Assembly: GCF_036507355.1 (NCBI RefSeq) | Contig: NZ_AP027877.1 | DNA length: 64,000 nucleotides | Strand: one strand, 5' to 3' | DNA from: Escherichia coli | GTDB lineage: Bacteria > Pseudomonadota > Gammaproteobacteria > Enterobacterales > Enterobacteriaceae | Shown here: piece after piece, positions 1 to 10,534 of the stretch | How the letters are laid out: each line of letters starts with the position of its first letter | Numbering within the stretch: position 1 is the first letter of the stretch | Translations under genes and position numbers: made by a program | The notes under the pieces: model-generated | What the model saw: only the letters and a program-made list of their open reading frames with translations | Told to the model about the DNA's origin: nothing | The model's database searches: none

Positions 1-1199
1 ACCGTAAAATCGGTAAACAGCTCGACCTGTACCATATGCAGGAAGAAGCGCCGGGTATGGTATTCTGGCACAACGACGGCTGGACCATCTTCCGTGAACT
101 GGAAGTGTTTGTTCGTTCTAAACTGAAAGAGTACCAGTATCAGGAAGTTAAAGGTCCGTTCATGATGGACCGTGTCCTGTGGGAAAAAACCGGTCACTGG
201 GACAACTACAAAGATGCGATGTTCACCACCTCTTCTGAGAACCGTGAGTATTGCATTAAGCCAATGAACTGTCCGGGTCACGTGCAGATTTTCAACCAGG
301 GGCTGAAGTCTTATCGCGACCTGCCGCTGCGTATGGCCGAGTTTGGTAGCTGCCACCGTAACGAGCCGTCAGGTTCGCTGCATGGCCTGATGCGTGTGCG
401 TGGTTTTACCCAGGATGACGCACATATCTTCTGTACCGAAGAACAAATTCGCGATGAAGTTAACGGATGTATCCGTTTAGTCTATGATATGTACAGCACT
501 TTTGGCTTCGAGAAGATCGTCGTCAAACTCTCCACTCGTCCTGAAAAACGTATTGGCAGCGACGAAATGTGGGATCGTGCTGAGGCGGACCTGGCGGTTG
601 CGCTGGAAGAAAACAACATCCCGTTTGAATATCAACTGGGTGAAGGCGCTTTCTACGGTCCGAAAATTGAATTTACCCTGTATGACTGCCTCGATCGTGC
701 ATGGCAGTGCGGTACAGTACAGCTGGACTTCTCCTTGCCGTCTCGTCTGAGCGCCTCCTATGTGGGCGAAGACAACGAGCGTAAGGTACCGGTAATGATT
801 CACCGCGCAATTCTGGGGTCGATGGAACGTTTCATCGGTATCCTGACCGAAGAATTCGCTGGTTTCTTCCCGACCTGGCTTGCGCCAGTTCAGGTTGTTA
901 TCATGAATATTACCGATTCACAGTCTGAATACGTTAACGAATTGACGCAAAAACTATCAAATGCGGGCATTCGTGTTAAAGCAGACTTGAGAAATGAGAA
1001 GATTGGCTTTAAAATCCGCGAGCACACTTTGCGTCGCGTCCCATATATGCTGGTCTGTGGTGATAAAGAGGTGGAATCAGGCAAAGTTGCCGTTCGCACC
1101 CGCCGTGGTAAAGACCTGGGAAGCATGGACGTAAATGAAGTGATCGAGAAGCTGCAACAAGAGATTCGCAGCCGCAGTCTTAAACAATTGGAGGAATAA
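1..1199 (+). CDS. thrS: Threonyl-tRNA synthetase, C-terminal part (5' end lies outside the window)
   Basis: Open frame from base 3 with no start in window; translation ([23 protein letters not shown]...) recognised as ThrS. Confidence 0.95.
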
Positions 1200-1745
<546 letters not shown>

Positions 1746-1764
1746 GGCCTTCAAGTAGCACTGT

Positions 1765-1800
1765 CTGTGGAGCCTTCGGGCTTCACAGGCTTTGTTCGCC
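1765..1800 (+). terminator. Stable 10-bp hairpin with UUCG tetraloop plus T-rich tail between infC and rpmI (attenuator/terminator-like)
   Basis: ctgtggagcc-ttcg-ggcttcacag followed by gctttgttcgcctttgtttcgttt. Confidence 0.5.
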
Positions 1801-1817
1801 TTTGTTTCGTTTATTAA

Positions 1818-2039
<222 letters not shown>

Positions 2040-2064
2040 GCCGTTAACGTTTTTAACTTTTTAA

Positions 2065-2448
<384 letters not shown>

Positions 2449-2457
2449 GCCAGTTGA

Positions 2458-2486
2458 AAGAGGGAGCTAGTCTCCCTCTTTTCGTT
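2458..2486 (+). terminator. Rho-independent terminator after rplT
   Basis: Hairpin agagggag-ctagt-ctccctct followed by tttcgttt. Confidence 0.7.
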
Positions 2487-2570
2487 TCAACGCCATCAAA
2501 ACATTGACTTTTATCGCCGTAGCCTTTTCAATAAAGGTCTTTTGAAGAGTACCAAAAGGTAACGCAAGCA

Positions 2571-2615
2571 ATGAATGCTGCTATTTTCCGCTTCTTTTTT
2601 TACTTTAGCACCTGA
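2571..2615 (+). CDS. pheM: pheST attenuator leader peptide (14 aa, 5 Phe)
   Basis: atgaatgctgctattttccgcttctttttttactttagcacctga = [14 protein letters not shown]. Confidence 0.9.
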
Positions 2616-2663
2616 ATCCAGGAGGCTAGCGCGTGAGAAGAGAAACGGAAAACAGCGCCTGAA

Positions 2664-2688
2664 AGCCTCCCAGTGGAGGCTTTTTTTG
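2664..2688 (+). terminator. pheST attenuator terminator
   Basis: Hairpin agcctcc-cagt-ggaggct followed by a T7 run, downstream of the pheM leader. Confidence 0.8.
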
Positions 2689-2856
2689 TATGCGCGTTTT
2701 GAAAAATAAAAAGCCTGTCTCATCAGGTGTAATTGTCGCAGCCAGCCTGGACACGGCCAGCGCGGAGAAACCGGAGCGTATTTAAGTACGTGAGAATTTC
2801 GAGCACTGCCCGGGACCAAAATGGCAAGTAAAATAGCCTGATGGGATAGGCTCTAA

Positions 2857-3882
<1,026 letters not shown>

Positions 3883-3893
3883 GGCAGGAATAG

Positions 3894-6284
<2,391 letters not shown>

Positions 6285-6288
6285 ACCT

Positions 6289-6588
6289 ATGGCGCTTACA
6301 AAAGCTGAAATGTCAGAATATCTGTTTGATAAGCTTGGGCTTAGCAAGCGGGATGCCAAAGAACTGGTTGAACTGTTTTTCGAAGAGATCCGTCGCGCTC
6401 TGGAAAACGGCGAACAGGTGAAACTCTCTGGTTTTGGTAACTTCGATCTGCGTGATAAGAATCAACGCCCGGGACGTAACCCGAAAACGGGCGAGGATAT
6501 TCCCATTACAGCACGGCGCGTGGTGACCTTCAGACCCGGGCAGAAGTTAAAAAGCCGGGTCGAAAACGCTTCGCCCAAAGACGAGTAA
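6289..6588 (+). CDS. ihfA: Integration host factor alpha subunit
   Basis: 99-aa [52 protein letters not shown]... Confidence 0.95.
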
Positions 6589-6602
6589 TCTGATCTAACT
6601 AA

Positions 6603-6628
6603 AAAGGCCGCTCTGCGGCCTTTTTTCT
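6603..6628 (+). terminator. Rho-independent terminator after ihfA
   Basis: Hairpin aggccgc-tct-gcggcct followed by ttttttc. Confidence 0.8.
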
Positions 6629-6688
6629 TTTCACTGTCGAAGAGTCACCGTAAAATCAACGCCATGACACTTCAGCAGAACGGATACC

Positions 6689-7669
6689 ATGCTGACACTT
6701 GCCCGCCAACAACAGCGACAAAATATTCGCTGGTTATTATGCCTGTCAGTTTTGATGCTGCTGGCGCTTCTCTTAAGCCTTTGCGCCGGTGAACAATGGA
6801 TCTCGCCAGGTGACTGGTTTTCTCCTCGTGGCGAACTGTTCGTCTGGCAAATTCGCCTGCCACGTACGCTGGCTGTATTGCTGGTTGGTGCGGCGCTGGC
6901 TATATCCGGCGCTGTAATGCAGGCGTTGTTTGAAAATCCTCTGGCAGAACCTGGACTACTTGGCGTCTCTAACGGCGCAGGCGTGGGGCTTATCGCCGCG
7001 GTATTGCTTGGGCAAGGGCAACTCCCCAACTGGGCGCTAGGGCTGTGTGCGATTGCTGGGGCGCTTATCATCACTTTAATACTCTTACGTTTCGCCCGTC
7101 GTCATCTTTCGACCAGTCGGTTATTGCTGGCTGGCGTTGCATTAGGGATTATCTGTAGCGCACTAATGACGTGGGCTATCTACTTTTCCACCTCTGTTGA
7201 TTTACGTCAGCTGATGTACTGGATGATGGGCGGTTTTGGCGGCGTAGACTGGCGGCAAAGCTGGCTGATGCTGGCATTGATCCCCGTGTTGTTGTGGATC
7301 TGTTGTCAGTCCAGGCCGATGAATATGTTAGCACTTGGCGAGATCTCGGCGCGGCAACTGGGTTTACCCCTGTGGTTCTGGCGCAATGTGCTGGTGGCAG
7401 CGACCGGCTGGATGGTTGGCGTCAGTGTAGCGCTGGCGGGTGCTATCGGCTTTATTGGTCTGGTGATCCCACATATTCTTCGGTTGTGTGGTTTAACCGA
7501 TCATCGCGTATTACTTCCCGGCTGCGCGCTGGCAGGGGCGAGCGCATTGCTGCTGGCCGATATTGTAGCGCGCCTGGCATTAGCTGCCGCAGAGCTGCCT
7601 ATTGGCGTGGTCACCGCAACGTTGGGTGCGCCGGTGTTTATCTGGTTATTGTTAAAAGCAGGACGTTAG
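6689..7669 (+). CDS. btuC: Vitamin B12 ABC transporter permease
   Basis: 326-aa hydrophobic protein [34 protein letters not shown]... Confidence 0.93.
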
Positions 7670-7731
7670 CCGCAAAAAGACGGTCTATGATTAAAAGCTA
7701 AGATTTTTACTGACCACACCCAGGAGAAACG

Positions 7732-8283
7732 ATGCAAGATTCCATTCTGACGACCGTAGTGAAAGATATCGACGGTGAAGTGACCACGCTGGAGAAGTAC
7801 GCCGGTAATGTGCTGTTGATTGTCAATGTCGCCTCAAAGTGTGGCTTAACGCCGCAATATGAGCAGTTGGAGAATATTCAGAAAGCCTGGGCCGATCGAG
7901 GTTTTGTGGTGCTGGGATTCCCGTGCAACCAGTTTCTGGAACAAGAACCGGGCAGCGATGAAGAGATTAAAACTTACTGTACCACCACATGGGGGGTGAC
8001 GTTCCCGATGTTCAGTAAGATTGAAGTTAACGGCGAAGGACGCCATCCGCTGTATCAAAAATTGATTGCCGCAGCGCCGACCGCAGTCGCGCCGGAAGAG
8101 AGCGGATTCTATGCCCGTATGGTCAGCAAAGGTCGTGCACCGCTGTACCCTGATGATATTTTATGGAATTTTGAGAAATTTTTAGTTGGCAGGGACGGAT
8201 TGGTCATCCAGCGTTTTTCCCCGGATATGACGCCGGAAGATCCCATTGTGATGGAAAGCATTAAACTGGCGTTGGCAAAATAA
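7732..8283 (+). CDS. btuE: Glutathione peroxidase-family peroxiredoxin
   Basis: 183-aa protein with the CGLTPQY peroxidase motif. Confidence 0.92.
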
Positions 8284-9032
8284 TGTCTATTGTGATGCAG
8301 TTACAGGATGTTGCGGAATCTACCCGCCTGGGGCCGCTTTCTGGCGAGGTTCGGGCTGGGGAGATCCTGCATCTGGTGGGGCCGAATGGCGCGGGTAAGA
8401 GTACCTTACTGGCGCGAATGGCCGGAATGACCAGCGGTAAGGGAAGCATTCAGTTCGCGGGGCAACCACTGGAAGCATGGTCCGCAACAAAACTCGCGCT
8501 GCATCGCGCCTATCTTTCACAACAGCAGACGCCGCCGTTTGCAATGCCGGTCTGGCACTACCTGACACTGCATCAGCACGATAAAACGCGTACCGAACTA
8601 CTGAATGATGTCGCAGGGGCGCTGGCTCTTGATGACAAACTCGGACGTAGCACCAATCAACTTTCCGGCGGTGAATGGCAACGCGTACGTCTTGCTGCGG
8701 TGGTGCTGCAAATCACACCACAAGCCAATCCCGCAGGCCAATTGCTGCTTCTTGATGAGCCGATGAACAGTCTTGATGTTGCGCAACAAAGTGCGTTAGA
8801 CAAAATTCTGAGCGCGCTGTGTCAGCAAGGACTGGCGATTGTGATGAGCAGTCACGATCTCAACCACACATTGCGTCATGCGCATCGGGCGTGGTTGCTA
8901 AAAGGTGGAAAAATGCTGGCCAGTGGACGCAGAGAAGAGGTGCTCACGCCGCCAAATCTGGCGCAGGCCTATGGGATGAATTTTCGCCGTCTGGATATCG
9001 AAGGTCACAGAATGCTGATTTCGACCATCTGA
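8283..9032 (+). CDS. btuD: Vitamin B12 ABC transporter ATPase
   Basis: 249 aa with Walker [10 protein letters not shown] and signature LSGGEWQR; ATG overlaps the btuE stop (ATAATG). Confidence 0.93.
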
Positions 9033-9109
9033 TTTCATCAGTATCTTGAAAATCGGGTAATTACGACGCTAAATTAATGCAAGAATAAAAAACAGAGGAA
9101 CCGTACGGA

Positions 9110-9574
9110 ATGCGTTTCTGCCTTATTTTGATCACAGCACTGTTTCTGGCCGGGTGTAGCCACCATAAAGCACCGCCGCCAAATGCCAGACTTTCTGATT
9201 CGATTACCGTTATTGCCGGTTTGAACGACCAGCTACAAAGCTGGCATGGCACGCCGTATCGTTATGGTGGCATGACGCGGGGCGGTGTGGACTGTTCGGG
9301 ATTTGTGGTTGTGACGATGCGCGATCGTTTCGATTTGCAGCTGCCCCGAGAAACCAAAGAACAAGCCTCTATCGGCACGCAAATTGATAAAGACGAGTTG
9401 CTGCCTGGTGACCTGGTCTTTTTCAAAACGGGTTCCGGACAAAATGGTTTGCATGTAGGTATTTACGATACCAACAACCAATTTATCCACGCCTCTACCA
9501 GCAAGGGAGTGATGCGTTCCTCACTTGATAATGTCTATTGGCAGAAAAATTTCTGGCAGGCGAGACGAATCTAG
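9110..9574 (+). CDS. nlpC: NlpC/P60-family lipoprotein (peptidoglycan endopeptidase)
   Basis: 154 aa; lipobox LFLAGCS and catalytic Cys context DCSGFV. Confidence 0.9.
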   Translation: MRFCLILITALFLAGCSHHKAPPPNARLSDSITVIAGLNDQLQSWHGTPYRYGGMTRGGVDCSGFVVVTMRDRFDLQLPRETKEQASIGTQIDKDELLPGDLVFFKTGSGQNGLHVGIYDTNNQFIHASTSKGVMRSSLDNVYWQKNFWQARRI

Positions 9575-9820
9575 TATGTCGAAAAATGGACGGTGATGAT
9601 ACATCGCCGTCCATTTACTCCTGAATACAGTAGTATTTTGCAGACAACAATTCCGTAAATGGATTATTCGTTTATAATCAGGATAATCTAAAAAAAGGAC
9701 CCCTGAAAAAGTGGTTAACATGGAACAAATGAAAGTTACTCCTTATGTAATTGTTATGTCTTATGGCCTCATCCCTTTTAGCCGGATACTGAAAAACATC
9801 CTTCGAGAGGGACGGTTACC

Positions 9821-10534
9821 ATGAAGATTTTTTTGGAGAATCTTTATCATTCTGATTGCTATTTCCTGCCGATAAGAGATAACCAGCAAGACCTTGTCGG
9901 CGTTGAGTTAATTACCCATTTCTCCAGTGAAGATGGTACGGTTCGTATCCCGACGAGTCGGGTTATAGCGCAACTTACCGAGGAGCAACATTGGCAATTA
10001 TTTTCAGAGCAGTTGGAATTACTAAAATCATGCCAACATTTTTTTATTCAACATAAACTCTTTGCCTGGCTTAATTTAACGCCACAAGTGGCTACATTAT
10101 TATTAGAGAGGGATAATTACGCAGGCGAACTATTAAAATATCCGTTTATTGAACTGTTGATTAATGAGAATTACCCGCATCTCAATGAAGGAAAAGATAA
10201 TCGCGGTCTTTTATCCTTATCGCAAGTGTATCCCCTTGTGTTAGGTAATTTGGGAGCAGGCAATAGCACAATGAAAGCGGTTTTTGATGGTCTTTTCACC
10301 CGCGTCATGCTGGATAAAAGTTTTATTCAGCAACAAATCACGCACCGCTCCTTCGAACCGTTTATTCGTGCGATCCAGGCGCAAATTTCCCCTTGTTGCA
10401 ATTGCATCATCGCGGGGGGCATTGATACGACAGAAATATTGGCACAGATTACCCCCTTCGATTTCCATGCTCTCCAGGGATGCCTGTGGCCTGCCGTTCC
10501 TATAAATCAGATAACGACGTTGGTTCAGCGATAA
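9821..10534 (+). CDS. ydiV: Degenerate EAL-domain protein, anti-FlhD4C2 factor
   Basis: 237-aa MKIFLENLYHSDCYFLPIRDNQQDLVGVELITHF...; AT-rich gene. Confidence 0.88.
   Translation: MKIFLENLYHSDCYFLPIRDNQQDLVGVELITHFSSEDGTVRIPTSRVIAQLTEEQHWQLFSEQLELLKSCQHFFIQHKLFAWLNLTPQVATLLLERDNYAGELLKYPFIELLINENYPHLNEGKDNRGLLSLSQVYPLVLGNLGAGNSTMKAVFDGLFTRVMLDKSFIQQQITHRSFEPFIRAIQAQISPCCNCIIAGGIDTTEILAQITPFDFHALQGCLWPAVPINQITTLVQR

Follow-up and report, generated by a model that had tools for sequence, protein, structure and literature searches.

The pheM leader region and pheST attenuator of Escherichia coli: anatomy, conservation and an adjacent repeat insertion

Genes and annotated features of the locus

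The locus analyzed here lies near the left end of a 64,000-nucleotide stretch of Escherichia coli DNA (contig NZ_AP027877.1 of the RefSeq assembly GCF_036507355.1; hereinafter, the window). The gene order thrS-infC-rpmI-rplT-pheM-pheS-pheT-ihfA-btuC is the same as in E. coli K-12 (Table 1); the coordinates of the genes were transferred from the RefSeq annotation of E. coli with an offset of 2061.

Table 1. Genes and regulatory elements between thrS and btuC, in window coordinates
Feature	Position	Strand	Description	Basis
thrS	stop at 1199		interrupted by the left end of the window	RefSeq transfer
infC	1203-1745			RefSeq transfer
rpmI	1842-2039			RefSeq transfer
rplT	2092-2448			RefSeq transfer
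Hairpin after rplT	2453-2491		AGAGGGAG-CUAGU-CUCCCUCU followed by UUUUCGUUUC; -17 kcal/mol with the outer stem	
pheM/pheST promoter	2504-2533	+	-35 TTGACT (2504-2509), 17-nt spacer, -10 TTCAAT(A) (2527-2533)	conservation, literature
Probable Shine-Dalgarno AAGG of pheM	2556-2559	+	within the conserved AAGGTAACGCAAGCA(A)TG	
pheM	2571-2615	+	leader ORF	RefSeq transfer, translation
Phe codons of pheM	2586-2588, 2592-2600, 2604-2606	+		translation
Segment 1 (5' strand of the protector helix)	2577-2603	+	overlaps Phe codons 6-10; pairs with 2633-2658	MFE
Apical hairpin of the protector	2605-2629	+	holds the TGA stop; -9.9 kcal/mol alone	
Antiterminator, 5' strand	2621-2634	+	GGAGGCUAG.GCGU, just past the stop codon	
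Segment 2 (3' strand of the protector helix)	2633-2658	+	GUGAGAAGAGAAACGGAAAACAGCGC	MFE, alignment
Antiterminator, 3' strand	2655-2670	+	2661-2670 doubles as the terminator 5' arm (contested segment)	
Intrinsic terminator (attenuator proper)	2661-2687	+	stem 2661-2670/2675-2684, loop CAGU, T7 at 2681-2687	
pheS	2899-3882	+	regulated structural gene	ORF list, RefSeq transfer
pheT	3897-6284	+	regulated structural gene	ORF list, RefSeq transfer
ihfA	6289-6588		follows pheT	ORF list, RefSeq transfer
btuC	6689 onward			RefSeq transfer

For two of these genes, the mechanically listed open reading frame (ORF) differs from the annotated one. The ORF lister begins infC only at a GTG (1311) because the annotated start, as transferred from RefSeq, is an ATT (1203-1205) located 4 nt past the thrS stop codon TAA (1197-1199); this ATT is the well-known non-canonical AUU start of IF3. 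In the case of pheS, the lister uses an in-frame ATG at 2887, 12 nt upstream of the true start, so that the mechanical ORF encodes 331 rather than 327 amino acids; the annotated start is preceded by GAGGAAAACC. At the distal end of the operon, the Rfam family STnc540, an enterobacterial sRNA, matches positions 6530-6688 of the plus strand with 67 bits (the gathering score is 38). The match spans the last 59 nt of ihfA, a terminator hairpin AAAAAGGCCGC-TCT-GCGGCCTTTTTT (6602-6626) and the spacer to btuC, and looks like a putative 3'-UTR-derived sRNA of the pheST-ihfA transcript.

Identity of the region between rplT and pheS

The region between rplT and pheS is the annotated E. coli pheM gene, or 'Phe leader region', the attenuator of pheST. 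The 481-nt stretch 2440-2920 is present, with 95-100% identity, in 5425 of the 5426 complete E. coli genomes, where the features annotated on it are 'Phe leader region', 'pheM: pheST operon leader peptide PheM', rplT and pheS; at the equivalent location, E. coli genomes are annotated with the RefSeq protein WP_001386830.1. From the rplT stop codon to the terminator, the sequence is base-for-base the same as that of pheM (b1715) from K-12 MG1655, with no difference in the attenuator, the same peptide and the same position of the promoter. Only positions 2749 and 2810 of the compared stretch differ from K-12, and both are inside the repeat insertion located downstream (see below). The gene is marked as the pheM ortholog by a peptide identical to that of b1715 and by its conserved location, flanked by rplT and pheS.

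An Rfam search identifies a full-length match (2565-2689 on the plus strand, model positions 1-125) to the family RF01859, Phe_leader, with 75.0 bits, above the gathering score of 55 bits, and an E-value of 1.1e-11; a search of a 551-nt sub-region again recovers this match, with an E-value of 5.9e-13. Codons 6-10 of the leader ORF (2586-2600) fall in segment 1 of the structure described below, and codon 12 is at the foot of its apical hairpin. None of the other Rfam families matches the leader region. The Phe-rich leader peptide upstream of pheST that had been proposed in the initial annotation is thus corroborated by the translation, by the identity to b1715 and by the RF01859 match, and the comparison with the published pheST attenuator that it called for yields the same sequence as K-12 pheM, for which the literature describes attenuation control. 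The feature itself is already known and has been established since the 1980s.

Promoter and upstream signals

The promoter of pheM and pheST was identified from conservation and from the literature. According to a passage in PMC4082710, the native pheST promoter 'TTCAATA' (Fayat et al. 1983) precedes the ATG of pheS by 368 nt, a distance that corresponds to window position 2531. The sequences ATTGAC and TTTCAATA are conserved in at least 70% of 76 enterobacterial species, and both promoter hexamers, together with the ribosome-binding region AAGGTAACGCAAGCA(A)TG, are conserved across species. A scan of the sequence for the sigma-70 consensus did not report this promoter because its -10 element has no A at position 2. 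Conservation reaches at least 90% over AAGGTAA-CGCAAGCA-TG (76 species), and the AAGG motif at the start of this stretch is the probable ribosome-binding site of pheM. A further hairpin stands between the rplT unit and the pheM promoter (2453-2491, Table 1); it was not listed by the terminator scan.

The leader ORF and its peptide

The pheM ORF (ATG AAT GCT GCT ATT TTC CGC TTC TTT TTT TAC TTT AGC ACC TGA, from the ATG at 2571 to the TGA at 2613-2615, plus strand) consists of 14 codons and the stop and encodes five phenylalanines, in codons 6, 8, 9, 10 and 12, exactly as initially annotated. Its absence from the ORF list had been attributed to its size, and this attribution is correct because 14 codons are below the 20-amino-acid floor of the lister. 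When all six frames of the window are scanned for at least five Phe codons per seven consecutive codons, a single site is found, at 2586; dinucleotide-preserving shuffles contain, on average, 0.15 such sites.

A search for PheS with one genome taken per species yielded 80 loci from Enterobacterales, with genera including Escherichia, Salmonella, Citrobacter, Enterobacter, Erwinia, Pantoea, Yersinia, Dickeya, Pectobacterium, Edwardsiella, Hafnia, Rahnella and Lonsdalea. Upstream of pheS, 78 of these loci encode the peptide core FRFFFYFS(T/A); the remaining two are incomplete within the leader at the 5' end, with the 3' half of the leader still visible. The ATG, the frame and the stop codon, which is always TGA, are retained in all species examined.

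Anatomy of the attenuator RNA

The RNA encoded by positions 2560-2700 folds with a free energy of -58.5 kcal/mol, compared to -36.1 +/- 3.4 kcal/mol for shuffled sequences (z = -6.7), and none of the 200 shuffles is as stable; this is the fold by which the attenuator was to be checked according to the initial annotation, and it agrees with the arrangement proposed there. The unconstrained fold consists of a 33-pair protector structure (2577-2658, -37.3 kcal/mol) and the terminator. The protector is a near-continuous duplex of about 24 bp topped by a 9-bp apical hairpin, which sequesters the 5' strand of the antiterminator, including the motif GGAGGCU. The terminator stem, GAAAGCCUCC-CAGU-GGAGGCUUUU, has 10 bp, of which five are G-C pairs, with a 4-nt loop and a free energy of -14.9 kcal/mol; together with its T-run, it represents an intrinsic terminator located downstream of the leader ORF and 214 nt ahead of pheS, the first of the structural genes. 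The terminator hairpin and T7 run previously placed at 2664-2688 are accurate to within a few bases.

The competing antiterminator pairs 2621-2627 with 2664-2670, 2628-2629 with 2659-2660 and 2631-2634 with 2655-2658 (-17.0 kcal/mol). The GGAGGCU at 2621-2627 is, in effect, a copy of the 3' arm of the terminator and is complementary to the AGCCUCC of the 5' arm (2664-2670). Both pairings exist and share positions 2661-2670, so that the antiterminator takes the 5' arm and excludes the terminator; the support for the antiterminator pairing comes from conservation, not from covariation. The lack of mutually exclusive structures, which was named initially as the outcome that would speak against attenuation, is therefore not what is found.

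Considered on its own, the hairpin at 2661-2687 scores as an ordinary intrinsic terminator and might be a constitutive terminator, or an insulator between the rplT and pheST units, in which case the Phe-rich ORF would be a coincidence of T-rich sequence: TTCTTTTTTTACTTT would yield Phe codons in one frame by composition alone. This explanation is already disfavoured and has next to no credibility, considering that the rplT unit has its own terminator hairpin (2453-2491) and that the pheST promoter lies between the two hairpins. Furthermore, the leader ORF is conserved with its start, frame and stop in all species examined, the Phe cluster is unique in the window against an expectation of 0.15, and the competing copy of GGAGGCU is conserved as well.

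A footprint-constrained model of the switch

The attenuation switch was modeled by representing the ribosome as about 30 nt of RNA that are forced to remain unpaired. In the minimum free energy fold of the full-length leader, the terminator is retained even under the mask of a stalled ribosome; this type of calculation was dropped as uninformative, given that attenuation is decided before the 3' arm of the terminator exists. Instead, the transcript was cut at 2672, that is, before the 3' arm is made. In the cut transcript, a mask positioned with any of the five Phe codons in the A site leads to the antiterminator, with 7 of the 10 bases of the terminator 5' arm paired with 2621-2627, whereas with no mask, or with a mask at the stop codon, the protector forms, none of these antiterminator pairs is present and the 5' arm is free. 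Thus, a ribosome at the Phe codons, as opposed to one at the stop codon, is predicted to break the protector, in the window as well as in 74 of the 76 distinct sequences from Enterobacterales for which this strict switch logic was evaluated. The model yields the switch only if transcription is assumed, on kinetic grounds, not to have reached the 3' arm yet. With this proviso, the alternative pairing segments and the classic attenuation arrangement claimed in the initial annotation are reproduced as a protector, an antiterminator and a terminator.

The count of 74 sequences was obtained with a refined criterion whereby only the pairing of the arm with the segment after the stop codon is considered. 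An earlier criterion for the unstalled state, any upstream pairing of the arm, was passed by 49 of the 76 sequences and was abandoned as it counted trivial local pairings of 2-5 nt. The two exceptions under the refined criterion, the leaders of Lelliottia nimipressuralis and Cedecea neteri (L020 and L037, respectively), are predicted to form the antiterminator even without a ribosome, which could be either noise of the model or a sign of a leakier attenuator. Among 500 dinucleotide-preserving shuffles of positions 2616-2660, 77 form an antiterminator and 33 (6.6%) pass the entire switch test. The fold of a single sequence is, accordingly, not very specific, being suggestive by itself but not decisive.

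Comparative evidence in Enterobacterales

A covariance model built from the leaders finds one strong plus-strand match, between rplT and pheS, in each of 81 sources; 79 of these matches are full-length, with scores of 102-153 bits, and two are incomplete at the end of the DNA. In all 76 species compared, the antiterminator strand contains a contiguous 6-11 bp complement to the 5' arm of the terminator, and the terminator stem has 8-11 bp. Over the same species, the protector helix has 22 pairs, with 94% of the cells paired and five pairs that show changes on both sides. By four of five measures, the whole structure scores higher than every one of 500 shuffles, and pairing amounts to 91% compared to 46-65% for slid partners.

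For the antiterminator, two of the five covariation measures do not exceed the shuffles (165/500 and 337/500), in columns that are disturbed by a register shift. Specifically, the alignment used here (A4) is shifted by 1 nt in the 5' arm of the terminator in about half of the rows, and its column counts for the terminator and for the outer antiterminator helix ('other: 40', 'AU 28 / GC 24') are for this reason artefactual; the counts given above for these two elements were taken from motif-anchored counting in each sequence, which replaced the A4 columns. The terminator and the core of the antiterminator are almost invariant, so that covariation cannot add support for them. Two other alignments were set aside. 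RNAalifold applied to a MAFFT alignment (A2), with inconsistent gaps around the terminator arm, gave a weak consensus of -6.7 kcal/mol and was not used. The first alignment produced with a covariance model (A3) was contaminated by weak minus-strand matches, which represent the palindromic helix read backwards, and was replaced by A4. Within E. coli, allelic differences are found at 2547, at 2616 (A/C, in the apical loop) and at 2672 (in the terminator loop), and never in a stem.

The extent of conservation of the peptide calls for consideration of a role for PheM itself. The sequence FRFFFYFS(T/A) is near-invariant over 78 species, from Escherichia to Yersinia, Dickeya and Lonsdalea, and the invariance encompasses the residues Arg7, Tyr11 and Ser13 that are not phenylalanines, as might be expected if this hydrophobic peptide of 14 residues were conserved for a function of its own, as a membrane micropeptide or as a nascent-chain arrest peptide. 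The nucleotides involved, however, are those of one strand of the conserved helix, and their synonymous sites are frozen or co-vary with the partner, which is the signature of constraint at the RNA level rather than at the peptide level. Codons 8, 10 and 12 (TTC8, TTT10 and TTT12) are invariant at the nucleotide level in 76 of 76 species despite the existence of synonymous alternatives, and in codon 9, the TTT/TTC variation is compensated by the partner (UA 33, UG 33, CG 9, 0 mismatches). Residues 2-5 of PheM, which are mostly outside the core of the helix, are free to vary in the 76 species. No evidence of a function of the peptide was found, and such a function is highly improbable. The extreme conservation of PheM is largely a consequence of RNA-level constraint, given the frozen or compensated synonymous Phe sites.

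Proposed mechanism and evidence from the literature

Taken together, these observations leave very little doubt that positions 2504-2687 comprise the promoter, pheM and a transcription attenuator of pheST(-ihfA) that senses charged tRNA-Phe by means of the ribosome. The sequence elements, their mutual exclusivity in the footprint-constrained model, the family membership and the conservation come from the present analysis, and the in vivo response to the charging of tRNA-Phe, the polymerase pause and the RNase III cleavage are taken from the literature. In the following scheme, the exact footprint of the ribosome and the kinetics are inferred. Transcription would start a few tens of bases upstream of pheM, and a ribosome would translate the 14-codon ORF as the remainder of the leader is being transcribed by RNA polymerase. 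With abundant Phe-tRNA-Phe, the ribosome would reach the TGA and depart, whereupon segment 1 would pair with segment 2 and the apical hairpin would hide the GGAGGCU; the 5' arm of the terminator would then be free, the hairpin at 2661-2684 would form and transcription would stop at the U-run, ahead of pheS. When Phe-tRNA-Phe is scarce, the ribosome would stall on one of the five Phe codons and cover segment 1 together with the 5' half of the apical hairpin. The freed GGAGGCUAG.GCGU would then pair with the antiterminator 3' strand before the 3' arm of the terminator is made, and, with the antiterminator in place, no terminator would form, resulting in read-through into pheS and pheT.

Several lines of published work bear on this scheme. 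According to a passage in PMC4082710, attenuation controls transcription from the pheST promoter (Fayat 1983; Trudel 1984; Springer 1985; Mechulam 1987, with 'tRNA(Phe)-dependent attenuation'), and a passage in PMC3831192 refers to site-directed mutagenesis of the regulatory region (Mayaux et al. 1985); a reporter for the pheM attenuator has been used as well (PMC3831192). A pause of RNA polymerase in pheM, measured in vitro, has a half-life of 25.2 s and is NusA-independent, and compensatory mutations of the hairpin gave no rescue (PMC9291695). Because the pause is independent of NusA and the hairpin rescue failed, the coupling step is less well understood than it is in trp and his.

For pheM RNA, alternative terminating and read-through structures have been described, with RNase III cutting within them (PMC5371410), and the RNase III site located by RNA-seq at position 1799278 of K-12 in that study corresponds to window position 2563. 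It could be argued on this basis that the 2577-2658 duplex is primarily an RNase III processing or decay element of the pheST mRNA or of the leader, with the peptide and the alternative pairings being secondary. Indeed, the protector duplex of about 24 bp and its 9-bp hairpin are long enough for an RNase III substrate, cleavage of the pheM leader in vitro generates several ends that map inside the termination structure, and decay of the downstream message is slower in an rnc mutant than in the wild type (PMC5371410). A primary role of this kind nevertheless seems very unlikely, as it leaves unexplained the run of Phe codons, the invariant UGA and the duplicated GGAGGCU in 76 of 76 species; moreover, the authors of PMC5371410 treat the cleavage as turnover on top of attenuation. 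Processing by RNase III is best seen as an additional layer rather than as an alternative. The evidence presented here is computational and has its limits, but nothing contradicts the explanation of the locus as an attenuator.

Comparison with other leaders

In the leaders trpL, hisL, leuL, thrL and ilvL, the ribosome stalls at codons for the regulating amino acid, and a protector, an antiterminator and a terminator compete. The pheM leader differs from these in its codon specificity, which is for Phe, and in its target, which is a tRNA synthetase operon and not a biosynthetic one. It has been placed in the class of leader-peptide attenuators (PMC5371410, PMC9291695), and the NusA-independence of its pause distinguishes it from hisL, leuL and pheL (PMC9291695).

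The closest comparison is with the leader of pheL-pheA, which is the core of RF01859. In both leaders, a Phe-rich ORF provides one strand of a long protector helix, with an apical hairpin over the stop codon, and the terminator is G+C-rich, of the GCCUCC/GGAGGC type; both score above the RF01859 threshold. A covariance model built from pheM only detects pheL, with 40.9 bits and a rough E-value of about 2e-9. The score of pheL against RF01859 is much higher than that of pheM (132 bits vs 75 bits), the two peptides are different (15 and 14 residues, respectively), and so are the targets, a biosynthetic enzyme in the case of pheL and an aminoacyl-tRNA synthetase in the case of pheM. Judging from the sequences, pheL and pheM are best described as distinct subtypes that share the architecture and a part of the sequence, with pheM being the more distant member of RF01859.

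Regulation of a synthetase gene through the choice between a terminator and an antiterminator is also characteristic of the T-box leaders of Firmicutes, where the uncharged cognate tRNA increases expression of the synthetase (PMC1262725), and the classical attenuators of gamma-proteobacterial synthetase genes have been contrasted with T-boxes in the same work. A T-box senses the tRNA by direct binding, whereas the sensor of pheM is the ribosome that translates the leader ORF. The possibility that the leader is a T-box was rejected, since no T-box match was detected either at the gathering threshold (positions 1-10000) or with E-values of up to 1 (positions 2400-2950).

A repeat insertion between the attenuator and pheS

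A 147-nt inverted-repeat block (approximately 2707-2853), which the window shares with K-12 and with about 88% of E. coli, lies downstream of the terminator and ahead of pheS. Some 12% of E. coli (about 644 genomes) lack the block and have 'AT' in its position, and it is likewise missing from other genera. There, the leader stop codon and pheS are mostly 111-200 nt apart and, therefore, the block is an insertion. It has imperfect terminal inverted repeats (2712-2727 and 2837-2852, with 14 of 16 positions matching) and folds as a single long hairpin of -60.8 kcal/mol; all Rfam matches within it (search of 2400-2950 with E-values of up to 1) are far below threshold. There are up to 8 copies of the block per E. 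coli genome, with a median of 5, and another copy, 83% identical, is located between rlmKL and ycbX. In a comparison by size and copy number alone, the block fits the 'RSA' repeat of the K-12 record (150/151 bp, 6 copies; PMC5172473) and can be called RSA-like.

According to a passage in PMC4082710 that draws on an unpublished thesis, an 'alternate promoter', TCTAAGT, has been proposed about 45 bp upstream of pheS. This motif is found at window positions 2852-2858, straddling the right junction of the block, where the sigma-70 consensus scan detects no promoter. If the TCTAAGT promoter is real, it was created by the insertion, bypasses the attenuator and is missing in the strains with the short allele. 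It is conceivable, if rather unlikely, that the block alters the control of pheST, either through such a junction promoter or through the presence of the -61 kcal/mol hairpin in the read-through mRNA; should this be the case, E. coli lineages would, either way, differ in the coupling of Phe-tRNA synthetase to the charging of tRNA-Phe.

Conclusions

The main value of this case is as a positive control, given that reading of the sequence alone caught a regulatory ORF of 14 codons that ORF callers skip, a reading that all of the tools bear out. What the present analysis adds is a compact comparative picture, with one copy of the leader per genome in all 80 species of Enterobacterales sampled, synonymous Phe-codon sites that are frozen or compensated, and an antiterminator strand that is effectively a duplicate of the 3' arm of the terminator. 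In most E. coli, although not in all, the leader additionally harbors a mobile repeat. In biological terms, the attenuator ties production of an essential aminoacyl-tRNA synthetase to the level at which its own tRNA is charged.
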